Below, piece after piece: positions 5,119 through 30,725 of a DNA stretch of 32,000 nucleotides. The stretch is from Tannockella kyphosi (GTDB taxonomy: Bacteria > Bacillota_I > Bacilli_A > Erysipelotrichales > Coprobacillaceae): contig NZ_CP088239.1 in NCBI RefSeq assembly GCF_021054785.1, forward strand, positions 360,001 to 392,000, written 5' to 3'. Each line of letters opens with the position of its first letter. Within the stretch, counting starts at the first letter, position 1. The notes below the pieces were generated by a model. It was not told the DNA's origin. It ran no database searches and was given only the letters and a program-made list of their open reading frames with translations. Both the position numbers and the translations under genes were made by a program.

Positions 5119-6034
5119 CCAATATATTGAAAACTTACAATACAAAGAAGCATTAGAATTATTAGAAAACATGGAAGATGAACAAACTAGGTATTATCGA
5201 TTAGTTTGTTTGTATGGTTTACAAGATTATCAACAAGCTAAAAAAGAAGCGATGCAAGCTAAGATGTTAGCACAAGATACTTATTATGATGTTGTTGCAA
5301 TGCAGTTAAGTATTTTAAAAGAATTAGAAGAATTTGAAGATGCAATTAATATTGTAGTAGAAGAATTATCAATGCCTTATATCCCATATCAATATGAGAC
5401 AACATTTGATACAGCATATGATGAACTATTACTAGCAAAACAAGAAATGAATCAAGATAATCTAACAAATGCAACGATCTTTGATCTAGATGATATTGAA
5501 TCTATTTTATCAAAAGAACAAACTAATGAAGATTTGCTTTATTTAGCTATCGAACAAATGCAAAAATTAAACATTAGAAGACTCATACCAAGCATCCGTT
5601 CTTTTTTACAAAAGAATAGTAATACTGCTTTTGCAAAGAGTTTATTAATAGAACTAATGATAGAACAAGATATTGATGAAGAATTTATTGTATTAAAAGA
5701 TGGAGCAGAGTATGACATTAACCCTAGTTTTGCACCAATGGTTTTACAACAAGATTTTGTATCGTCTGTTTTAGAATTATTATCTAGTCATGTTGAAGAT
5801 GATAATCCATCTTTATATATGATGTGCGAGCAATTCGCTAACTATTATTTTTATACCATGTATCCAAAATACATAGATGATCTAGAAGTATCCCTTATTG
5901 CTGGTGCTATTCACTATTATCTATGTATGTTACAGTATATGGAAGTAGATTTAGCAGATATTGAAGCGTCTTATCATGTGGAAGGACAAGAAATATTGGA
6001 TATGCTAGACTCATTTAAGAAGATTGAATTCTAA
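5111..6034 (+). CDS. Hypothetical acidic cytoplasmic protein (helical/TPR-like N-terminus)
   Basis: 307-aa ORF. AAGGAG at 5095-5100. Its start overlaps the LysR stop by 8 nt. No catalytic motif recognised. Confidence 0.5.
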   Translation: MINQYIENLQYKEALELLENMEDEQTRYYRLVCLYGLQDYQQAKKEAMQAKMLAQDTYYDVVAMQLSILKELEEFEDAINIVVEELSMPYIPYQYETTFDTAYDELLLAKQEMNQDNLTNATIFDLDDIESILSKEQTNEDLLYLAIEQMQKLNIRRLIPSIRSFLQKNSNTAFAKSLLIELMIEQDIDEEFIVLKDGAEYDINPSFAPMVLQQDFVSSVLELLSSHVEDDNPSLYMMCEQFANYYFYTMYPKYIDDLEVSLIAGAIHYYLCMLQYMEVDLADIEASYHVEGQEILDMLDSFKKIEF

Positions 6035-6050
6035 AACTATATATAAATTG

Positions 6051-6073
6051 GTGGGATTAAACAAAAATCCCAC
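6051..6073 (+). terminator. Hairpin after the LysR/hypothetical gene pair
   Basis: GTGGGATT-aaacaaa-AATCCCAC stem-loop 17 nt after the stop. The downstream T-tract is weak. Confidence 0.45.
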
Positions 6074-6131
6074 TTAATTCATATTAAATTCAAAAAAGTA
6101 TGTAAAAATGATATTTTTTTTATTAAACCTA

Positions 6132-6159
6132 TTGACATTGTATGGAATATCTCTATAAT
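6132..6159 (+). promoter_or_regulatory. Sigma-A-type promoter of the pilus operon leader
   Basis: TTGACA (6132-6137), 16-nt spacer, TATAAT (6154-6159), directly upstream of the first riboswitch. Confidence 0.65.
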
Positions 6160-6175
6160 AAAGGGTGTAAAGTAT

Positions 6176-6256
6176 ATCAACCAAAGGTAAAACTATCGTG
6201 AGATAGTGACACAAAGCTATAGGGACTCTGTGGGGGAGTCAGCCAGTTACAATCCA
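6176..6256 (+). promoter_or_regulatory. c-di-GMP-I (GEMM-I) riboswitch aptamer, copy 1
   Basis: GGTAAAAC-TATC-GTGA(GNRA)-GATAG-TGACACAAAGCTATAGGGACTC-tgtgggg-GAGTCAGCCAGTTAC. This matches the GEMM-I architecture: GGYAAA, a GNRA-capped P1b, GACRCAAAGC, a P2 hairpin, then AGCC.G.UAC. Confidence 0.8.
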
Positions 6257-6287
6257 TATCATAAATGATTTGATATAGATTTTTTTA
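6252..6287 (+). terminator. Expression-platform terminator of riboswitch 1
   Basis: ATCCATATCA / TGATATAGAT stem (9 of 10 bp) with a 9-nt loop, followed by T7. Confidence 0.55.
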
Positions 6288-6366
6288 ACTAATAAAATAG
6301 GTAAAGCCATCGCAAGGTGGTGACACAAAGCTATAGGGACTCGGGGGAGTCAGCCAGTTGCAAACG
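6288..6366 (+). promoter_or_regulatory. c-di-GMP-I (GEMM-I) riboswitch aptamer, copy 2
   Basis: GGTAAAGCCATC-GCAA(GNRA)-GGTGG-TGACACAAAGCTATAGGGACTC-gggg-GAGTCAGCCAGTTGC. The core is identical to copy 1. The P1b stem differs but keeps its pairing through compensatory changes. Confidence 0.8.
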
Positions 6367-6403
6367 AGAATGATATTATTCTAGGTTTGCATTTTTTATT
6401 TTG
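6359..6403 (+). terminator. Expression-platform terminator of riboswitch 2
   Basis: TGCAAAC-g-AGAAT-gatatt-ATTCT-ag-GTTTGCA followed by TTTTTTATTTT. The 5' arm overlaps the aptamer's 3' end (CAGTTGCA). Confidence 0.75.
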
Positions 6404-6433
6404 AAAATCAAATTAAACCGGAGGTGAAGGGCC

Positions 6434-8653
6434 ATGAAAAATTATACTAGAAAATCACATAAATATACGGATGCAACAAGAGTGTTATTACTTTGTATGT
6501 TAATAGCCCTGGGATCTGTTATCGGTAATAATAAGATGTATGCAGATGAATTAAATGGAACTGCATCAATGGATATTACTCTTCTTGAAATAGAGGGTAT
6601 TACGTTTGATGTAGATATTGAATTAGTTTTCCTTATTGGTGACAATTATTATTGGGGTGCTCAAGAACAAGTTAATGCGGTTGAGGTATATGTAAATGGT
6701 GAAATAGTTGAACAATCATTTGTAGCTGGTCAATACGATGATACATTTGAAAGTGCTGGTTATAAATTATCATTAACAGATGTAGCAGCTGGGGCCCTTA
6801 TCGAGGTTAGAAATGTTAGTGTAGAATTACTCGATGATTGGGATGGTTCAATTATTGATGGGGCTAAAACAGCCGTCACAGTAACAAGCAGTGATGAAAA
6901 CTTCCCACTTGATATTACAAATGATGGTGTCGGAGAATTCTCATCAACTGAAGCATTAAATTTTGATGTCACTTTAGAAATAACAAATAGGCTGGAAACA
7001 GAAACAGACCAAGATACAAATTATACATCGGATACTTTCTTAACAACTGGTGGAAGTTACGATTTAGAATACTTATTATCACATTATAATGTGATTTCTA
7101 GAAACGATATAGTGGCTACTCATATTGTTGGACCTATTATTGCTGGAGCTTCAGTATATTACCATTCAGATGATGAAATAGGTTCGGATACGGTAACACC
7201 AACAGCAAGTATATCAGTTTCGGATTATGCAAAAGGAATTTCAAGTTTTATTGGTGATTTACTACCCCTAGATGCAGGGTGGGAAGTAACTTCTACCGCT
7301 TTATTAACTTATGGTTTCGAAAATACAGATGCTGGATTTGTTCTTCCTGCTTTCTATACTACTCTTAGCGATGTGTTTATTAGCTTAGGTGAGGAAACAT
7401 GGACTCAGTGGTATGTTACAAAAGATGATGTAACTTTCAAATCTCCAAACTATTCTGCTCAAGGAGATATTTATCAAAATGATTATTATGTAGATTTTAG
7501 TGAGATGTATGGTTCTATTTTAGCACAAGGTGAGGATTTAGTGGATGAAGGGTCTATTGAAGGGCAACAAACAACTGTTGTTCAAGTTACGCCAGCTGAT
7601 TATGTAGATGGAGTATTAACAATAGATGCAGAAAAAAGTTATACAATTTTAGATGCTACTGGATTAGATACAATTCGTATTAATTATCCTGAAGATTACG
7701 ATGATGAGACTAATAATTATTTGGATGCAACAACAGTAAGTTTTGCAGGTGATAATTTAAGCAAGATTACATTAGATGATGGTGAAACATATTCTATTTT
7801 CCCAGTTATCGAACTTTATTTAAATGGAGAAAAGATTGTAAATAGTTATGGTAGTGGGGGTAAAGGTGTTGAATATGGAGAACAAGGAAATCAAATTGTC
7901 TTCAATTTACCTTATGTTACTGGAAGTATGGTTCTAGGTGATCAAAATGATGATATTCAAGGACATATCATTGCTCCTAATGTTGATTTATATCGTTATG
8001 CTTTTACAGGTACAACGATAACAGGATGGGGTGGAGGAAATATTAATGGTTGTGTAATCGTTAATGACTTCCATAGTGGAGAAACAGAATTACATATGTT
8101 CCCATATACTGGAACTGAAATGCAAATGATTGAAGTTATTATTGAAGGTGATAAAACATTTATTGATGGTGACTTATCAGATATGAGTTTTGATTTTATA
8201 TTAGAATTAGTAGACGAAAGTCAAGAAAGTGATTTTACAGCTGGGATTTTCCCATTAACAGCTACAACGGATGCACAAGGGAACTTTGTGTTTGATGATA
8301 TAGAATTCTCAAAAACAGGTACATATGAGTTTATGATTAGTGAAGTAATACCAGATAGTACTGGTAGTGTTATCTATGACCAAAGTGTTTATATGGTTAC
8401 TGTAGATATTACAATTACAAATAGTCAGTATGTATCGAATGTAACTATTAGTAAAGTAGTAAATAGTGAAGGAGAACAAGTTAGTGAAAGTGTTGATACT
8501 ATCTATTTTGAAAACAGTATAGATCAACCAAGTTATGAAGACTTTGTTTTACCTAACACAGGAGGTTTTGGGGCTTTGCATTATTATGTTTTAGGAATTA
8601 TGGTTATAGGTTTATCAATCATTCTTAAAAAAGAGGAAAGAGGAGGAAATTAG
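6434..8653 (+). CDS. LPXTG-anchored large pilus-associated adhesin (probable tip pilin)
   Basis: Signal peptide, and a C-terminal LPNTG + hydrophobic segment + KKEERGG sorting signal. The central region resembles the choice-of-anchor A domain (YNVISRNDIVATHIVGPIIAG...GHIIAPNVDL...NINGCVIV). The C-terminal region looks like a pilin isopeptide-linkage domain (FDFILEL...GTYEFMISEV...YDQSVYMVTVDI). RBS GGAGGTG. Confidence 0.75.
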   Translation: MKNYTRKSHKYTDATRVLLLCMLIALGSVIGNNKMYADELNGTASMDITLLEIEGITFDVDIELVFLIGDNYYWGAQEQVNAVEVYVNGEIVEQSFVAGQYDDTFESAGYKLSLTDVAAGALIEVRNVSVELLDDWDGSIIDGAKTAVTVTSSDENFPLDITNDGVGEFSSTEALNFDVTLEITNRLETETDQDTNYTSDTFLTTGGSYDLEYLLSHYNVISRNDIVATHIVGPIIAGASVYYHSDDEIGSDTVTPTASISVSDYAKGISSFIGDLLPLDAGWEVTSTALLTYGFENTDAGFVLPAFYTTLSDVFISLGEETWTQWYVTKDDVTFKSPNYSAQGDIYQNDYYVDFSEMYGSILAQGEDLVDEGSIEGQQTTVVQVTPADYVDGVLTIDAEKSYTILDATGLDTIRINYPEDYDDETNNYLDATTVSFAGDNLSKITLDDGETYSIFPVIELYLNGEKIVNSYGSGGKGVEYGEQGNQIVFNLPYVTGSMVLGDQNDDIQGHIIAPNVDLYRYAFTGTTITGWGGGNINGCVIVNDFHSGETELHMFPYTGTEMQMIEVIIEGDKTFIDGDLSDMSFDFILELVDESQESDFTAGIFPLTATTDAQGNFVFDDIEFSKTGTYEFMISEVIPDSTGSVIYDQSVYMVTVDITITNSQYVSNVTISKVVNSEGEQVSESVDTIYFENSIDQPSYEDFVLPNTGGFGALHYYVLGIMVIGLSIILKKEERGGN

Positions 8654-8654
8654 A

Positions 8655-10256
8655 ATGAAAAAATTATTAAAAGTATTGCTTGTAGCATTTGTTTTTCTAA
8701 CAAGTATGACAGCAACAGGTGTTTCGACATTTGCAACGACAAGTGGAGATATCGTAGTAACAAATGATCCTGCAGAAACATCAATTACGATTGTAGGGAA
8801 AGATTTTGCAGCTTATCGTATTTTCGATATTACTGTAGGTACAAATGATGATGGAGATACAGTAATTACTAGCTGGGATTTCAATGGTGATTTTGGAGAT
8901 TTCTTCACAGGCACTATGATTGGTGAAGATGCTAATGAATATGTATTCACAGATTTAGATGACGATGCTAAAGTTGGTCGTGCTCTTGAATTAGTAAATA
9001 CTTATGCAGATAACATGACAGCATTTTATGAATTAATGACTGCATTTATTGATGCAAATGGGATAACTGCAGATTATACATTAACTGGAGCAAAAGCAGG
9101 TAACTTAGATACTGAAGAAGCAGTTGCTAGTGACGTAGAATTAGGTTATTATATTGTTGTAGATACTACTGCTGAACCAGGTGTAGATGGAATTGTTGTT
9201 GCAGGTATGATGGATACTGTAACTGGTGATTTAGATATCGCAATTAAATCATTCGCACCAACTGTTTCTAAACAAATTAAAGACAATGATGATGATTCTT
9301 GGCAAGATGTTGCTGATAACCAAATCGGAGATGATGTAGAGTTCTTATTAACAGGTACTTTACCTTCATTAAATAACTTAGAAGCTTATTCTAGCTACTA
9401 CTATGCAATGACAGATACATTAAGTGAAGGATTAAGTTATAATGATGGAACTATCGTTATTTATACAGATTATACAGCGGGAACAGTTTTAGATTCAGAA
9501 TATTATAGTTTATCAGTAAATGAAGAAAATGATGGATTTACTGTTGAATTCAATGTAGAAGATATCGTAACAGATACTTCAGCTTCTCATGTATATGTTT
9601 ACTATACAGCTGAATTAACAACAAAAGCAGCTTTAGATTTTGATAAAAATACAAATACTGTAGTATTAGATTTCAGTAATAATCCTTATGATTCAAGTGA
9701 TAAAGGACAAAGTGAAGATGAAGTTTATGATTATACATTTAGTTTAGATGTTTTCAAAACTACTGCAGATGGAGAAACAGCATTAGCTGATGCTACATTC
9801 GCATTATTTGAAGGTGATGTTCAAATTAACTTAATTTTAATAGATGAAGAAACTAACACATATGCTATTTACGATGGTGAAGCTGCTGATTTAGAAAACG
9901 GTGGACAAATCGTTACTGATGAAACTGGTTTATTTACTATTGTTGGTTTAGATGATGTTAAAACTTATACAATTAAAGAAACTGCTGCTCCTGAAGGATA
10001 TAATGCAATTGATCCAATTGAATTTGTGATTAGTGCAACATATAATGAAACAACAGGTGCTTTAGAAACATTAGTAACTGACAGTGCTTATATTAGTGAA
10101 ACAGATTTAGCAATTACTATTAGAAATACTACAAACTCTTTATTACCTTCAACAGGTGGTATGGGTACAGTGATTTTCTATGGTGCAGGTGCAGTGATTA
10201 TGGTTGGTGCAGTTGTATTATTCTTAAAAAGCCGTAAAGAAGAAGAAAAAAATTAA
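8655..10256 (+). CDS. Major (backbone) pilin, LPXTG-type
   Basis: Signal peptide and a pilin-motif-like FAPTVSKQIK. E-box YTIKETAAPEGYN. LPSTG + TM + KSRKEEEKN sorting signal. Adjacent to a class C sortase. Confidence 0.8.
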   Translation: MKKLLKVLLVAFVFLTSMTATGVSTFATTSGDIVVTNDPAETSITIVGKDFAAYRIFDITVGTNDDGDTVITSWDFNGDFGDFFTGTMIGEDANEYVFTDLDDDAKVGRALELVNTYADNMTAFYELMTAFIDANGITADYTLTGAKAGNLDTEEAVASDVELGYYIVVDTTAEPGVDGIVVAGMMDTVTGDLDIAIKSFAPTVSKQIKDNDDDSWQDVADNQIGDDVEFLLTGTLPSLNNLEAYSSYYYAMTDTLSEGLSYNDGTIVIYTDYTAGTVLDSEYYSLSVNEENDGFTVEFNVEDIVTDTSASHVYVYYTAELTTKAALDFDKNTNTVVLDFSNNPYDSSDKGQSEDEVYDYTFSLDVFKTTADGETALADATFALFEGDVQINLILIDEETNTYAIYDGEAADLENGGQIVTDETGLFTIVGLDDVKTYTIKETAAPEGYNAIDPIEFVISATYNETTGALETLVTDSAYISETDLAITIRNTTNSLLPSTGGMGTVIFYGAGAVIMVGAVVLFLKSRKEEEKN

Positions 10257-10300
10257 TTAAAAGAATATAAAACATATTAGGGAACATGAGGGAGAGTCCA

Positions 10301-11161
10301 ATGAAGAAGAAGAGTTCGACAATTGCATTTGCTTTGTTATTCATTGTTGGTCTTTCCATCATGCTATACCCTAGCTTTTCAAATTTTTACAACAGTTTAT
10401 ATTGTTCACAAGCAATAACTGCTTACCAAGAAGTAATCGAATATCAAATTGAAAACGCAGAAGAACTTTTTGAAGAAGCAAGAGAGTACAATTCAAAGAT
10501 AGTGGAAGGCGCTAGTCAGTTTATTAGTGGAGAACCTTACAATATCGATTATATAAATGCATTTGATATTTACAATGGTATGATAGGATATTTAGAAATT
10601 GATGAAATTGATGTTTCACTACCTATTTATCATGGAACAGCGGAATCAGAATTATCAAGAGGTGTTGGTCATTTAGAGGGATCATCTTTGCCTACTGGTG
10701 ATATTGGTACGCATACTGTATTAAGTGGACATACGGGATTACCGTCTGCTGATTTATTAACAGATTTAGATGAATTAGAAATTGGTGATACGTTTACATT
10801 ACTGATTTTAGATGAAGTATTTACTTATGAAATAGTAGAAATAAATGTTGTATTACCTTCTGATACCTCGTATCTAGGAGTACAAGCTGATAGGGATTTA
10901 GTAACATTGATTACTTGTACACCTTATGGTGTAAATTCACATCGTTTATTAGTTATGGGAGAACGTATTGAAACTCCTGAAGAATATTATACAGAACATG
11001 TTAGTAATAATACTTTTGTATTATTCCAATTAGTGATTTTTATTGTTGTAATCTTGTTTATTTTGTTAATAGTGGTTATAATAAAGAAGAAAAAGAGAAG
11101 TAAAAAACAAAGAGAATTTATTCAAGAAGAAGGGAGCTTAAATGATGAAATATCTACGTAA
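10301..11161 (+). CDS. srtC: Class C (pilin-polymerising) sortase
   Basis: VLSGHTGLP (His), TLITCTPYG (Cys), NSHRLLV (Arg), a lid-like GEPYN, an N-terminal TM and a C-terminal TM anchor + KKKKR. I prefer the ATG at 10301 (after GAGGGAGAG) over the ORF-track 10286. Confidence 0.85.
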   Translation: MKKKSSTIAFALLFIVGLSIMLYPSFSNFYNSLYCSQAITAYQEVIEYQIENAEELFEEAREYNSKIVEGASQFISGEPYNIDYINAFDIYNGMIGYLEIDEIDVSLPIYHGTAESELSRGVGHLEGSSLPTGDIGTHTVLSGHTGLPSADLLTDLDELEIGDTFTLLILDEVFTYEIVEINVVLPSDTSYLGVQADRDLVTLITCTPYGVNSHRLLVMGERIETPEEYYTEHVSNNTFVLFQLVIFIVVILFILLIVVIIKKKKRSKKQREFIQEEGSLNDEIST

Positions 11162-12167
11162 AGCATTTGTAGCAGTTGCTTGTTTATTAGTATGTTTAAT
11201 AAGTGTGGTAAATGTTGAGGCAATGGGTTTAATTGATACTTCAGCCCAAGGATCGATTACAATTAAATATAGTTATGATGATATTGAATTAAGTGGTATT
11301 ACTTGTAAAGTTACCCAAGTAGCTACAATCTCATCTTATGGTGAATACTCTGCAACAGAGAAGTTTGATGGTTTGCCTATGGCAGATGATTATTCTTCGA
11401 ATGAAGAATGGAGCGACTATAAAGATACGTTAGGTGTCTTAATGAACGCTAATTTAATTGAATCTGACTATACTGTAGTAACCAATGAGTATGGATATGT
11501 TACGCTTAGTGGTTTGGCTACTGGATTATATATTATTGAATTTGAAGATTTAACGATTTTAAGTGAAGATGGATTGGTGGAAACAACTTATAGTAGCGAT
11601 ACTGTTTTAGTTTCTGTACCAACTTATGATGTTGTTACTGGTGAATATAGTTATGAACAAACTACAGCACCAAAAGTAGTGATGACAGAAAATGAAGTAG
11701 AAGTTTATGAAGAACCAGAATTGATTTCTGTTTCTGTTAATAAGATTTGGGAAAATGATAATTTATTTAATATTCGACCTACTACAGTAGAAGTTACTTT
11801 ATATTGTGATGGTCAAGTGTATGATGTTATTAATCTAACAATTGAAGATGCTTGGACATATACTTGGGAAGATTTAGATCCTGAATGTGTATGGGCAGTA
11901 TTAGAGACTAGTGTGCATGTTGGATATGAAGTGGGTTATGAAGTTGTAGGAAACATTCATATTATTAAAAACAGTTTCAAATATGATGATGTATTATCTT
12001 ATGAAGAAGATTTTCCAATTATTGATGATGTATTGAGTTTTGAAGAAGAAATTCCTCAAACTGGGGTTGTGCTTTGGCCAATGCAAGCTTTAGCAGCGGT
12101 TGGCGTATTCTTAATAAGTGCGGGACTTATCATAGAAAAACGTGGGAATCATGAAAAAAAGCGCTAA
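11142..12167 (+). CDS. Minor pilin with a CnaB-type domain and an IPQTG sorting signal
   Basis: Signal peptide. CnaB-like VSVNKIWENDNLFNIRPTTVEVTLYCDGQ. C-terminal IPQTG + TM + EKRGNHEKKR. Its start overlaps the sortase stop. Confidence 0.7.
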   Translation: MMKYLRKAFVAVACLLVCLISVVNVEAMGLIDTSAQGSITIKYSYDDIELSGITCKVTQVATISSYGEYSATEKFDGLPMADDYSSNEEWSDYKDTLGVLMNANLIESDYTVVTNEYGYVTLSGLATGLYIIEFEDLTILSEDGLVETTYSSDTVLVSVPTYDVVTGEYSYEQTTAPKVVMTENEVEVYEEPELISVSVNKIWENDNLFNIRPTTVEVTLYCDGQVYDVINLTIEDAWTYTWEDLDPECVWAVLETSVHVGYEVGYEVVGNIHIIKNSFKYDDVLSYEEDFPIIDDVLSFEEEIPQTGVVLWPMQALAAVGVFLISAGLIIEKRGNHEKKR

Positions 12168-12738
12168 ATTATTAATTGTTTCTGGTGCTATTTGTATTTG
12201 TGGTGCTATTGGTTTATTTGCAAAAATGCAAATAGAAAATGCTGCAACAAGTAGTGAAAATTCAGCAGTTACGGATGACTTTAATGCTTATCTGACAACG
12301 CTAGATGGAACAGAAATAAAAGAAGTAGATACGACACAAAACAATGAAAGTGTTTATATTGATGGTGATTTATATTTAGGAATCATTATAATAGAGTCAG
12401 TAGGTATTGAATTACCTGTAAACTATGAATGGACAGATGCAAAATTGAGTTCTTCACCTTGTTATTATGATGGATTGCTTTATGAAGATACTCTTATTAT
12501 TGGTGGACACAATAGTTCTATTCATTTTGGACCACTTCATCAAGTGGAATTAGGTGATATTGTTGAATTTATTGATCCTTCTGGCACAGTACATACATAT
12601 ACAGTTACTGAAAGTTATGTTATTGCTGAAACAGAAGTAGAAGAATTGAAAGATATTGGTGATAGTGATTTAACACTATTCACTTGTTATAGTGATAATA
12701 GTTATAGAAGGGTTATTCGTTGTGAACGAATAAGCTAA
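12151..12738 (+). CDS. Second, small sortase (not class C-like)
   Basis: N-terminal TM, GGHNSSIHF (His), LTLFTC (Cys), YRRVIRC (Arg). The ATG at 12151 lies inside the ORF-track ORF 12142..12738. Confidence 0.7.
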   Translation: MKKSAKLLIVSGAICICGAIGLFAKMQIENAATSSENSAVTDDFNAYLTTLDGTEIKEVDTTQNNESVYIDGDLYLGIIIIESVGIELPVNYEWTDAKLSSSPCYYDGLLYEDTLIIGGHNSSIHFGPLHQVELGDIVEFIDPSGTVHTYTVTESYVIAETEVEELKDIGDSDLTLFTCYSDNSYRRVIRCERIS

Positions 12739-12777
12739 GAATACTATTTTAATGCAAAAGAGCTTCTCCTCTAATTT

Positions 12778-12813
12778 AAACAAAAAACAAGTCGGCTAAC
12801 TTGTTTTTTGTTT
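12778..12813 (+). terminator. Strong intrinsic terminator ending the pilus operon
   Basis: 15-bp perfect stem AAACAAAAAACAAGT / ACTTGTTTTTTGTTT with loop CGGCTA. Confidence 0.8.
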
Positions 12814-12848
12814 ATAGAGGTTTTTTAAAATTAAGTAGTGTGTTTAAG

Positions 12849-12877
12849 TTGATTATATTGATTTAATCAACTATAAT
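12849..12877 (+). promoter_or_regulatory. Promoter of the GGDEF-EAL gene
   Basis: TTGATT (12849-12854), 17-nt spacer, TATAAT (12872-12877). Confidence 0.5.
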
Positions 12878-12922
12878 TTACTTATATGTTTGTACATACA
12901 ATCTTGGGGAGGAGTGGTATGA

Positions 12923-15508
12923 ATGAAGAAGATACTATTTATTTTTGTAATTTGTTTTGCAATTATTTTTTCGAATTTTACTGATATTGAAGCTGCTCCT
13001 ATTCAAACGATAAAAATAGGATATGTTTTAGAGTCAGACTATGAATACACTTATAATTATAGTAGCTATTATCGTTTGATAGTTGATTATTTTGGAGATA
13101 TATATGATGTTTGTGGTAAAGAGTTTGAGTTTGTAGCAATTGATAAAAGTGATTTATTTACAAGTTTAGTAGAAGATGAAGTTGATATTGTAGCATTGTC
13201 TATTAAACCAGAATTTGTTAATGAGTATACTGAGGTTGAAGATAGTTATGTAGAGTCTAAATATATGCTATCTTATGATTCGATAACAAATATTGATTTA
13301 GGGGCTTTTGATGCTTTTACTTTGGATTCTAATACTAATTTAATTGAAACGCTAGAAGCTGCTGCAATTACTTTAGGAACAGATGATGAGGATTATTATA
13401 CGGATTTAATTGATATTTATTTTAATCAAAACTATGATGATTTTGATGTTTTAACTGCTGATGAATGGGAAATATTATCTACAAAAGAAGAATATATCGT
13501 TGCTTATGAATCAGATCATTTTCCTTTTAGCTATACTAATAATATGGGTGAAGCAGATGGTATTTCAGTGGATTTAATGGATGAGATTGCTAGTTATGCA
13601 GGGATTGATATACGATATGTCTGTGATGGCGAAATTGATAATGAGTTTGTGGATATTAATCTTTCTATTTTTGAAAGCAGTTCTATTTCTTATCATAATG
13701 ATGAGAGTGTTGTTTATGTTACTTTTCCATTGGTGGCAGTGGGTAGTGAACGTTTTTATTCGTCTGATGGATATTCATTTGGTTATTTAGATTATACTTT
13801 CTATCTTGAAAATACCGAGGTGTTACCTGATGATAGTATATTATTTGAAAATTATGAAACTTTAGAAGATGCATTGTTTAATGGGGAAGTTGATTATATT
13901 CTTGCAACAAGTGCAATGGCACAGAGTGTTTTAGAAGCTGTTGATGGTGATTATATTATTACTCCTTTAGGGGTAGAGTTTGATGTTACTATGTCTTATT
14001 CTAAATTTTTAGATGAAAGAATTGTTAGCGTTTTTAATAAATTATTAAGTTCTTTAGATTCTGATTTAGTTTATACGATTGTTATTAATTCTATTGCTGA
14101 AAATAATACTTCTTTTACTTTGATGGATGTGGTAGTAACTTATCGATTTGAGATAGCTGCTAATTTGTTTATTAGTGCGGTTGTTATTATTTATTTATAT
14201 CAAAGGAATAGAAAGAAATTATTAGATCAAATATATGTTGATCCTCTTACTGGATTTATGACGGAAAAGAAATTTTTTGTAGAAGCAAAGAAAATTTTAG
14301 AACTAGGAAAACCAGGTTATAGTATTGTTTCTTTTGATATAGATAATTTTAAATATTTAAATGAAACGGTAGGTTATGAAGGTGGTTCAAAACTTATTAA
14401 ATTAACTGCTGATCATATTCGTCATGCTTATGGACCTGATACTTTAATAGCACGTATTTATGGGGATCAATTTTTGGTATTGACCGATAAAGTCTATAAT
14501 GGGAAAACAATTTGTGGAAAAGATAAGTGCGAAGGTTGTATTACAGATTCTTTACGTGAAGTACTATTTAATGAAACGATTTTAAAGACTAGTGTTGGTA
14601 TATATGATATTAAGAATACGGAAGAATCATTATCGTATATGGTTGATTGTGCACATATTGCAAGAAGAATGGGGAAAGGTACTTATGCCCATACTCGATT
14701 TGTGTTTGATGAACAAATGGAGGCTGAATTAAAAATAAAGAATCGTATTGTTGCTGCGATGGAAGGGGCTATTCAAAATAATGAGTTCTTCCCAATGTTC
14801 CAACCAAAGTTTGACTTTAAAACTGGTCAAATTATTGGTTGTGAGGCATTAGTACGTTGGGATTATCATGGTGGTATGTTACCTCCTGATAGTTTCATTC
14901 CTTTGTTTGAACAAAATGGTTTTATTAATGTAGTTGACTTCTTTATCTTAAAAGAAGCTTGTCGAGTTATTCGCTCGATGGAAAATAAAGTCAAAATTGC
15001 TGTTAATATTTCAGGTGTCACGCTATTACAAAAAGGAACAACTCATAAAATTATTACGATTTGTGATGTATATGAGATAGATCATCAATATATTGAAATA
15101 GAAATCACAGAAAGTGCATTTACTTCTAATTATGAGGAAATGATAGTGAAGGTAAATAATTTAAGAGAAGCTGGATTTAGTGTGGCAATGGATGACTTTG
15201 GTTCTGGATTATCATCGTTAAATAGATTGAAGAATTTAAAATTTGATGTTTTAAAAATTGATAAGCAATTTTTAGGGGATTCCCTATCAACTGATCAAGG
15301 CTATGCTATCGTTAAGAGTGTTGTGATGATGGCAAAAGATTTAGAACTAATAATTGTTTGTGAAGGTGTTGAAACAAAAGAACAAGCTAATCTTCTTAAA
15401 GGGTTAGGTTGCGATATTGCCCAGGGATATTATTATTCAAGGCCTTTATTGGAGCAGGATTTTATGGATTTAGTGTATGAAGATGTTAAGTTTACTTCGA
15501 ATAAATAA
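12923..15508 (+). CDS. Membrane sensor c-di-GMP phosphodiesterase (two SBP-like domains, TM, degenerate GGDEF, EAL)
   Basis: Signal/TM segment, then two family-3 solute-binding-like modules (IKIGYVLESDY...; YIVAYESDHFPFSYTNNMGEADGISVDLMDEIA). One TM follows. The GGDEF domain is degenerate: DPLTGFMTEKKF and YGDQF in place of GG[DE]EF. The EAL domain keeps all catalytic motifs: CEALVRW, VNIS, EITES, DDFGSG, KIDKQF, EGVET, QGYYYSRP. Confidence 0.85.
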   Translation: MKKILFIFVICFAIIFSNFTDIEAAPIQTIKIGYVLESDYEYTYNYSSYYRLIVDYFGDIYDVCGKEFEFVAIDKSDLFTSLVEDEVDIVALSIKPEFVNEYTEVEDSYVESKYMLSYDSITNIDLGAFDAFTLDSNTNLIETLEAAAITLGTDDEDYYTDLIDIYFNQNYDDFDVLTADEWEILSTKEEYIVAYESDHFPFSYTNNMGEADGISVDLMDEIASYAGIDIRYVCDGEIDNEFVDINLSIFESSSISYHNDESVVYVTFPLVAVGSERFYSSDGYSFGYLDYTFYLENTEVLPDDSILFENYETLEDALFNGEVDYILATSAMAQSVLEAVDGDYIITPLGVEFDVTMSYSKFLDERIVSVFNKLLSSLDSDLVYTIVINSIAENNTSFTLMDVVVTYRFEIAANLFISAVVIIYLYQRNRKKLLDQIYVDPLTGFMTEKKFFVEAKKILELGKPGYSIVSFDIDNFKYLNETVGYEGGSKLIKLTADHIRHAYGPDTLIARIYGDQFLVLTDKVYNGKTICGKDKCEGCITDSLREVLFNETILKTSVGIYDIKNTEESLSYMVDCAHIARRMGKGTYAHTRFVFDEQMEAELKIKNRIVAAMEGAIQNNEFFPMFQPKFDFKTGQIIGCEALVRWDYHGGMLPPDSFIPLFEQNGFINVVDFFILKEACRVIRSMENKVKIAVNISGVTLLQKGTTHKIITICDVYEIDHQYIEIEITESAFTSNYEEMIVKVNNLREAGFSVAMDDFGSGLSSLNRLKNLKFDVLKIDKQFLGDSLSTDQGYAIVKSVVMMAKDLELIIVCEGVETKEQANLLKGLGCDIAQGYYYSRPLLEQDFMDLVYEDVKFTSNK

Positions 15509-15533
15509 GTTTTTTAGGTGATATAGTGACTAG

Positions 15534-15587
15534 AAACTACTTTTTAAGCACTCTTGCATTGAAAGTGCTAATAAAAGTAGTTTTTTA
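15534..15587 (+). terminator. Compound hairpin terminator after the GGDEF-EAL gene
   Basis: AAACTACTTTT / AAAAGTAGTTT outer stem enclosing an AGCACT / AGTGCT inner stem, followed by a T-run. Confidence 0.7.
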
Positions 15588-15588
15588 G

Positions 15589-15617
15589 TTGAATAAAGTA
15601 AACAGTTAGTATATAAT
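15589..15617 (+). promoter_or_regulatory. tig promoter
   Basis: TTGAAT (15589-15594), 17-nt spacer, TATAAT (15612-15617). Confidence 0.6.
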
Positions 15618-21642: not shown

Positions 21643-21647
21643 GATTG

Positions 21648-21860
21648 TAGCGATGAATAGAAGGAGTACTTTGGTATCTTTAGTAGAGAGTTCTTGGTTG
21701 GTGAAAAAGAACAAAGGGAACAAAGGAAGGTAGTCTAGGAGCTTGTTTGGTGAACTAATAGTAATTAAACACGTAAAACTGCGTTAAAGTTTAGAGGCAT
21801 AAATATTATGCAAAGTAAGGTGGTACCACGAACATTCGTCCTTATGACGGGTGTTTTTTT
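21648..21860 (+). promoter_or_regulatory. T-box riboswitch leader (tRNA-sensing)
   Basis: Stem I K-turn CGATGA, specifier-loop AGGAGTA, AG bay AGTAGAGAG, distal loop GGTTGGTGAAA. T-box sequence AAGGTGGTACCACG (21817-21830). Terminator CGTCC-ttat-GACGGGTG + T7. Confidence 0.85.
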
Positions 21861-30634: not shown

Positions 30635-30725
30635 CTATGTTGTAGACCTCTAGACTACAACCGCACATAAAAGGTATTAAAGCAATGCTGCCTTGGTTGG
30701 CGAGTCTTAGAATATTATAGGAGGT
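30635..30725 (+). promoter_or_regulatory. Ribosomal protein L21 leader-like structured 5' UTR
   Basis: GTTGTAGAC-ctc-tAGACTACAAC hairpin plus downstream pairing (GCTGCC...GGCGAGTC) ahead of the RBS AGGAGGTG. Its position matches the Firmicutes L21 leader. Confidence 0.5.

Follow-up and report, generated by a model that had tools for sequence, protein, structure and literature searches.

Two tandem class-I c-di-GMP riboswitches, most likely ON switches, in the leader of a sortase-dependent pilus operon of Tannockella kyphosi

The pilus operon and its leader

We describe the leader of a pilus operon of Tannockella kyphosi (GTDB lineage Bacteria; Bacillota_I; Bacilli_A; Erysipelotrichales; Coprobacillaceae). 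The leader lies within a stretch of 32,000 nucleotides (nt) of the genome (assembly GCF_021054785.1, contig NZ_CP088239.1, positions 360,001 to 392,000 of the forward strand), which we call the window and whose own numbering is used throughout. It contains, in tandem, two complete class-I riboswitches for cyclic di-guanosine monophosphate (c-di-GMP), and most likely both act as transcriptional ON switches that gate the operon downstream. All features of the leader and the operon are on the + strand.

The operon consists of five genes (6434–12738), identified from their open reading frames (ORFs) and Pfam matches. The first encodes a tip subunit of 739 amino acids with an FctA domain and an LPNTG motif (6434–8653), and the second a backbone pilin of 533 amino acids with GramPos_pilinBB, SpaA and Gram_pos_anchor domains and an LPSTG motif (8655–10256). 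These are followed by a sortase (10286–11161; Pfam Sortase), a basal pilin with a Cna_B domain and an IPQTG motif (11142–12167), and a second sortase (12142–12738; Pfam Sortase). The series thus has what defines a sortase-dependent pilus operon, namely a backbone with an LPXTG anchor, ancillary pilins and dedicated sortases. A preliminary description of the window, made without database searches, had placed a pilus operon here; the pilus genes are indeed present, and the Pfam matches clarify that the pilins are of the sortase/LPXTG type and not type IV.

A sigma-70 promoter, TTGACA-16-TATAAT (6132–6159), matches the consensus at 12/12 positions and drives the leader and the operon. The end of its -10 box is 274 nt from the ATG of the first pilus gene at 6434, in agreement with the distance of about 270 nt given earlier. 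A ribosome-binding site, GGAGG (6420–6424), is read from the sequence just 5' of this ATG (6420–6436 together). Both aptamers lie on the same strand between the promoter and the ATG with no real ORF between, and because the ribosome-binding site and the ATG fall outside both switches, control is expected to be transcriptional. We also considered a leader peptide. Only chance ORFs of 20–46 amino acids overlap the aptamers, on either strand, and no leader-peptide model is needed.

Two c-di-GMP-I aptamers

A scan of the whole window with the Rfam 15 covariance models gave two matches to RF01051 (c-di-GMP-I, GEMM-I). Both are on the + strand, both extend over the full model (1–87), and both exceed the gathering score of 35 bits, as the preliminary description had anticipated. 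Aptamer 1 (6176–6254) scores 53.2 bits (E 7e-8) and aptamer 2 (6290–6365) scores 55.6 bits (E 2e-8); RF01051 is the best family within clan CL00126 for each. By covariance model both are bona fide c-di-GMP-I aptamers, and both are therefore predicted to bind the ligand. The longest exact word common to the two is the 23-mer GTGACACAAAGCTATAGGGACTC, and GGGGAGTCAGCCAGTT likewise occurs in both, which bears out the identical core reported for the two copies.

Both aptamers have the two-hairpin architecture of the family, in which a GNRA-capped hairpin, closed by a 2-bp helix, precedes a second hairpin. They belong to a subtype with a short P3 stem that has no 11-nt tetraloop receptor. In the original GEMM descriptions the absence of this receptor is usual where a GYRA loop replaces GAAA. 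The capped hairpin of aptamer 1 has a GUGA loop (ACTATC-GTGA-GATAGT, 6192–6207) and that of aptamer 2 a GCAA loop (GCCATC-GCAA-GGTGGT, 6306–6321). The alignment positions that we take to be equivalent to the nucleotides that contact the ligand, G20, A47 and C92 in Vc2 numbering, fall at 6186, 6213 and 6250 in aptamer 1 and at 6300, 6327 and 6361 in aptamer 2. They are G, A and C in both copies, by the Rfam mapping and by an alignment of 13 sequences that comprises six pilus-linked units and seven units from Butyrivibrio; the equivalents of A47 and C92 are invariant across this alignment. The six pilus-linked units are the two of the window, two from a related contig, L008, and one each from contigs L010 and L011. 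G rather than A at position 20 distinguishes sensors of c-di-GMP from those of 3'3'-cyclic GMP-AMP (3'3'-cGAMP). The part played by changes at this position is touched on in PMC9481103. Since both window copies carry G at this position, c-di-GMP rather than cGAMP is the probable ligand.

The preliminary description had also pointed to compensatory changes in the GNRA-capped helix (its P1b). Pairing is indeed kept between the two copies, but only one pair is changed on both sides (U-A to C-G). Two further pairs show one-sided wobble changes (A-U to G-U and U-A to U-G), and covariation within the window is thus thinner than claimed. Across the 13 sequences, 97.2% of the cells in the Rfam-derived structure are paired, compared with at most 40% when the partners are slid by 1–3 columns, and six pairs are changed on both sides, five of them within the GNRA hairpin. 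The cross-locus data therefore support this helix despite the thin covariation within the window.

Retention of both copies in a related lineage

The tip pilin belongs to a very rare family, with four homologues among 5.8 billion proteins, and a look-up for an exact match to the tip pilin of the window gave none. The homologue in L008 is 46% identical in amino acid sequence to that of the window and has the same upstream gene. L008 carries a promoter at the equivalent place (TTGACT-16-TATAAT), the ribosome-binding site and start codon are conserved, and there are again two RF01051 matches, of 55.1 bits (1566–1642, the orthologue of aptamer 1) and 52.3 bits. The core-to-core spacing is 114 nt in both lineages. 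The closest relative of each window copy is its positional counterpart in L008: the copy 1 hairpin reads ACTATCGTGAGrTAGT and the copy 2 hairpin sCCATCGCAAGGTGGT in both. The duplication is therefore older than the divergence of the window and L008 lineages, and both copies have been kept since.

Nucleotide identity between the window and L008 is 51% in the non-functional spacer upstream of the promoter, 62% in the tip pilin coding sequence, 78% over the whole leader, and about 99% (one difference) in aptamer 2 plus its tail. The second terminator of L008 retains the outer stem, GCAAAC/GTTTGC, together with the U-run, and its inner stem differs completely in sequence and still forms a hairpin. 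An old duplication with both copies under selection is supported by these comparisons, in line with what the preliminary description had argued against an inert duplication.

The 23-nt exact repeat common to both copies, inside which short-read contigs break, might suggest an artefact of assembly or an inert duplication of recent date. This explanation is already refuted and has practically no probability left. The two copies differ in hairpin, P3 loop and platform, and both copy types exist beside the distant pilin of L008. The leader is matched with 0 mismatches in four independent Sequence Read Archive (SRA) assemblies of the same organism, and one contig, L015, reads from aptamer 1 into aptamer 2, also with 0 mismatches; the tandem is therefore not a product of assembly. 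The Logan contigs of the window lineage (L007 and L012–L015) all end or begin inside the shared 23-nt core, at window positions 6223, 6336 and 6337, and a contig of the L008 lineage (L009) starts at the corresponding point in aptamer 2. De Bruijn assemblies will systematically split such tandem riboswitches, and surveys of metagenomes will count too few of them as a result. Scans of metagenome contigs with the tandem pattern and with a hairpin-plus-core pattern gave no match to either, and no relatives of the backbone pilin were present in the genome-contig collection. The organism of the window is itself missing from the genome and JGI metagenome collections that were searched.

The two remaining contigs, L010 and L011, encode tip pilins 32% identical to that of the window. 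In each, a single aptamer of this subtype, followed by the same platform, lies upstream of the tip-pilin homologue. In L011 the distance from the riboswitch terminator to the start codon is about 210 nt (1240–1452), and this stretch holds a TTGACA promoter-like site (approximately 1299–1304) from which expression of the operon may partly bypass the riboswitch.

Terminators and predicted polarity

Each window aptamer is followed by its own hairpin and T-run, as had been described, and the same is true of both copies in L008. Expression platform 1 consists of a weak, A-U rich hairpin (TC.ATATCA / TGATAT.GA, 6253–6279) and a T7 run (6280–6286). Expression platform 2 is an intrinsic terminator (6359–6402) with a hairpin at 6359–6391 and a T6-A-T4 tract at 6392–6402, of which T6 occupies 6392–6397. 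The hairpin of terminator 2 has a folding energy of -11.6 to -12.4 kcal/mol (z-score -3.2), and in the absence of ligand the probability of the terminator, P(terminator), is 0.93–0.94. The 5' arm of this hairpin, TGCAAAC, is built from the tail together with the last P3 nucleotide, G91 and C92, and so overlaps the 3' strand of the aptamer, as first noticed in the preliminary description.

This arrangement is common to the pilus-linked units. The terminator stem starts 0–2 nt past the last P3 pair (5 nt past it in the first window unit), and a UGCAAAY 5' arm holds the last P3 nucleotide, G91 and C92. Thermodynamic models make the terminator the default for all of these units but the first of the window, which deviates; the ligand-free P(terminator) of the other five is 0.93–0.99. 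Ligand-free folding of the pilus-linked units revealed no separate anti-terminator, with a long-range helix in the first window unit as a candidate only. Because the terminator is the sole stable ligand-free fold, regulation could act only by relieving termination, and ON polarity is therefore favoured for the pilus-linked units on the basis of these models and by analogy with characterized switches.

We consider it probable that two complete class-I switches of this kind gate the pilus operon in tandem. The single promoter would produce a leader of about 270 nt with the two switches in series. Without ligand, the last P3 nucleotide, G91 and C92 together with AAAC would form the base of the terminator stem, and transcription would stop. 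With c-di-GMP bound, these tail nucleotides would sit in the binding pocket, the two to three pairs adjacent to the U-run would be blocked, and RNA polymerase would read through. Expression of the pilus would require passage of both terminators, so that the read-through probabilities would multiply. Gates in series would be expected to give a lower basal leak and a steeper response to c-di-GMP than a single switch, an effect that has been discussed for tandem switches in general (PMC9481103); by analogy, a steeper response may hold for this leader as well.

Several observations weigh against this reading. A canonical junction-proximal P1 helix of at least 3 bp was found in none of the six pilus-linked units (0/6), and in the search for it the energies of duplexes between flank and tail were no better than those of shuffled sequences. 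In crystal structures a P1 helix closes the three-way junction and forms on ligand binding; it lies outside the Rfam model. Since there is no canonical P1, the coupling of ligand to termination would rest on an overlap of 2–3 bp. A crude proxy for the bound state keeps the rest of the terminator hairpin (P 0.70–0.86) and loses the U-proximal terminator pairs only. Loss of U-proximal pairs is expected to cut intrinsic termination strongly. Platform 1 is a further difficulty. Its hairpin, with a single G-C pair, has a folding energy of only -3.8 kcal/mol, compared with -8.2 kcal/mol (with U7) for its counterpart in L008 and -8.2 to -15.9 kcal/mol for the other five pilus-linked units. This unit has an altered tail, ACAAUC, and when the native 5' leader is included a long-range helix competes and the equilibrium P(terminator) is only 0.19. 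The folding of aptamer against terminator that the preliminary description proposed thus favours the terminator in copy 2 but not in copy 1, and switch 1 may be leaky and contribute little. In addition, the polarity of c-di-GMP-I riboswitches is not safely extrapolated between species (PMC6366702).

The last point is relevant to whether c-di-GMP might repress the pilus, with one or both units working as OFF switches or through some mechanism that does not involve termination. All seven functional class-I switches of Clostridioides difficile are OFF (7/7) and those of Vibrio cholerae work other than by termination, and the missing P1 helix would be compatible with such a mechanism. Nevertheless, we regard it as improbable for the pilus-linked units. 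With no anti-terminator and a default P(terminator) of at least 0.93 in all but one of the six units, there would be nothing for an OFF switch to act on. An OFF layout is clear in the Butyrivibrio relatives described below and is absent here, the ribosome-binding site lies 20–60 nt past the terminators and is not sequestered, and adhesins are usually induced by high c-di-GMP.

The first switch

The properties of platform 1 raise the question of whether only the second switch gates the operon. Aptamer 1 would then be intact and its platform degenerate or leaky, so that the leader would behave approximately as a single ON switch. The weak hairpin, the mutated tail and the low equilibrium P(terminator) are all consistent with this, and a simple terminator scan flagged neither of the leader hairpins. 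However, aptamer 1 is well conserved relative to its counterpart in L008, with all stem substitutions keeping pairing. The U7 run of platform 1 is retained in both lineages, and the sequence of this part of the leader is identical in the four independent samples. The local hairpin would also form faster during transcription than a long-range helix, and the equilibrium values therefore understate termination at the first site. A single functional gate is a possibility to be taken seriously, but one that we doubt.

The competing long-range helix involves the 5'-leader segment TATATCAA (6173–6180), which is a perfect 8-bp complement of the 3' arm of terminator 1 (6270–6277). A complement of this quality was equalled in 226/20000 shuffles. 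The fold combining the aptamer with the long-range helix (-17.7 kcal/mol) is essentially isoenergetic with that combining the aptamer with the terminator (-17.4 kcal/mol). No equivalent was found in the other five pilus-linked units, including the first unit of L008. In these models the pairing of 6173–6180 with 6270–6277 means one of two things, a P1-like anti-terminator peculiar to this genome or a first gate that leaks.

If the former, switch 1 would be an ON switch of a different design, in which the P1-like helix is stabilized by the ligand and, as an anti-terminator, competes with the local hairpin. The long-range helix would then provide the enclosing helix that is otherwise missing. 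On the other hand, it was noticed post hoc, it consists of A-U rich, low-complexity sequence, and it is not conserved in any other unit. It is also separated from the ligand junction by 5 nt and 19 nt, which makes its coupling to binding speculative. We think this design unlikely.

A different question is posed by a promoter-like site, TTGATA-17-TAAAAT, at 6270–6298. This site matches 10/12 consensus positions, and a transcript starting from it would contain aptamer 2 only, so that the two aptamers would belong to separate transcripts. Promoter-like sites occur at the chance rate (5 found compared with 5.9 expected). This one overlaps the hairpin and U-run of terminator 1 and is not conserved in L008. 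Moreover, transcription that began 6–8 nt beyond its -10 box would miss the G20 equivalent at 6300 and so yield a truncated aptamer 2. We rejected the internal promoter, as chance-level and not conserved, and regard separate transcripts as very improbable.

The reading that we prefer for the leader is one of two transcriptional ON switches in series behind the promoter at 6132–6159.

Aptamers with the same core in Butyrivibrio

An exact-core DNA scan of the genome-contig collection returned only six aptamers from Butyrivibrio/Lachnospiraceae (L001–L006), with an identical 21-nt core. They are of the same subtype as those of the window, with a short P3 and a GYRA tetraloop cap, and are identical at the core, A47 and C92 positions. 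The arrangement of the expression platform is different. The Butyrivibrio aptamers are single copies, and the terminator is separate from the aptamer, 11–21 nt downstream. The 5' arm of this terminator holds CUGGC, which is complementary to GCCAG in the 3' strand of the aptamer, and in several units folding favours the terminator only once the aptamer is locked. In these models the Butyrivibrio units have a textbook OFF layout.

Aptamers with the same core would thus be wired ON in the pilus-linked units and OFF in Butyrivibrio purely by the placement of the terminator, which makes them a clean natural comparison if the predicted polarities hold. The contrast could help in riboswitch engineering and in the annotation of polarity.

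Two further observations concern individual Butyrivibrio contigs. In L002 (1621–1695) and L004 (1714–1788) the core is kept and A replaces G at the G20 equivalent, a signature associated with GEMM-I variants selective for 3'3'-cGAMP; these two aptamers have the lowest RF01051 scores in the comparative set (43–44 bits). L005, from Butyrivibrio sp. VCB2006, has two aptamers of the same subtype on the same strand (5356–5431 and 6270–6345), about 900 nt apart and with OFF-type platforms. These may be the separate leaders of adjacent genes and not a tandem.

Comparison with characterized switches

Tandem arrangements are well known for this riboswitch class. Catalogued c-di-GMP-I tandems number 347 doublets and 12 triplets and are the commonest same-class tandem (Sherlock et al. 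2022, PMC9481103). The leader described here resembles the catalogued doublets in having the same class and multiple expression platforms, the category termed 'pseudo-cooperative' (PMC9481103).

The closest parallel is Bc3-5 of Bacillus thuringiensis CT-43, a triple tandem of class-I ON switches upstream of cspABCDE, in which more copies give a more stringent, more digital response (PMC4759541). The Bc3-5 terminators use the ligand-site C, the 3' strand of P1 and part of P3 (PMC4759541). Both systems have serial complete class-I switches in one 5' untranslated region, each with its own terminator, and genes for anchored surface proteins downstream. The terminator 5' arm overlaps the ligand-site C and the 3' end of the aptamer in both, with ON logic that is predicted from sequence in our case. 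There are also clear differences. Bc3-5 has three copies compared with two here and comes from a different order of Firmicutes, and the target in the window is a full pilus operon that encodes two sortases besides the tip, backbone and basal pilins. The terminator of Bc4 overlaps a 4-bp P1 strand and 6 nt of P3, whereas in the window no P1 can be identified and the overlap is 2–3 bp.

A single class-I ON switch in the B. cereus group, Bc2, precedes cap/cbpA, which encodes an LPXTG collagen adhesin (PMC7423583, PMC6366702). Like the switches predicted here, Bc2 is turned ON by read-through and controls a sortase-anchored protein with Cna_B domains. It differs in being a single switch and in controlling a single adhesin of the MSCRAMM type (microbial surface components recognizing adhesive matrix molecules) as opposed to a polymerized pilus. 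In C. difficile, ON switches of the c-di-GMP-II class, Cdi-2-3 and Cdi-2-1 (sortase substrates CD2831 and CD3246) and Cdi-2-4 (pilA1), likewise place surface adhesins and pili under induction by c-di-GMP. However, these have class II aptamers in single copies, and the pilus is type IV and not sortase-assembled. In the limited literature that could be searched we found no report that ties class-I switches to the operon of a sortase-assembled pilus or to Erysipelotrichales, nor any on c-di-GMP riboswitches in Coprobacillaceae-like bacteria, which does not prove that there is none.

Genes flanking the operon

The operon ends at a strong bidirectional intrinsic terminator (12778–12813, + strand), AACAAAAAACAAGT-CGGCTA-ACTTGTTTTTTGTT, the region of which has a folding energy of -50 kcal/mol (z-score -4.9). 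The next gene (12923–15508, + strand) encodes an SBP_bac_3-GGDEF-EAL protein with a strong Pfam match to EAL (2e-65) and a weak one to GGDEF. The GGDEF motif is degenerate (YGDQF), and the EAL, EITE, DDFGSG and EGVE motifs are intact; because of this combination the protein is predicted to be a c-di-GMP phosphodiesterase. Through it, the signal that would induce the pilus may be subject to local negative feedback. We considered the gene as a co-transcribed feedback arm of the operon, which it probably is not, given the strong terminator and a separate promoter-like site (12849–12877) in between.

The pilus region is flanked by a gene for a DUF3196-like protein, the nearest named relatives of which are in Thomasclavelia, Faecalibacillus and Coprobacillaceae (57–60% amino acid identity). 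In two contigs, L016 and L017 (63–64% identity), tig and lon come immediately after the DUF3196-like gene, and the tig promoter and hairpin region of the window (15549–15617) is homologous to the short intergenic spacer of these contigs. Since tig adjoins the DUF3196-like gene there, the leader, pilus operon and EAL gene together (6035–15548, about 9.5 kb) constitute an insertion relative to L016 and L017. The G+C content of the inserted block is 0.314, compared with 0.28–0.31 in the flanks, and gives no clear sign of foreign origin.

Upstream of the pilus region the window contains an agr-like quorum-sensing cluster (347–2926) that encodes a LytTR-domain protein (347–880), AgrB (1019–1534, - strand) and a HATPase_c_5 histidine kinase (1631–2926). 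A 41-amino-acid ORF beside agrB, seen in the identical contig L012, may be AgrD-like. Two ordinary Firmicute cis-regulators occur further downstream, a T-box leader (21644–21846, + strand, 141 bits) and a ribosomal protein L21 leader (30649–30717, + strand, 53.7 bits).

Conclusions

Tandem c-di-GMP-I control of surface adhesion is already an established concept that has been catalogued and experimentally tested, and the general significance of the present case is modest. For the biology of the organism, the leader would extend riboswitch-level control by c-di-GMP to a sortase-assembled pilus operon in a Coprobacillaceae-like gut lineage. Its modest interest comes from three features: aptamers of one core that are predicted to be wired either ON or OFF, a P1 helix that is apparently lacking, and the island-like association with a phosphodiesterase gene.

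These features could be combined into a joint reading, in which an ON subtype without P1 and mechanistically different gates in series belong to a transferable adhesion cassette. We think it unlikely that all parts of this hold together. If they did, the cytosine that pairs with the ligand and its neighbours would form the U-proximal base of the terminator, and control would be exerted by denying 2–3 bp with no exchange of helices. The first switch of the window would have evolved further into a bistable element that relies on a long-range anti-terminator. Together with the sortase pilus and the EAL gene, the tandem switch would form a self-limiting, c-di-GMP-gated adhesion cassette inserted at the junction between the DUF3196-like gene and tig.

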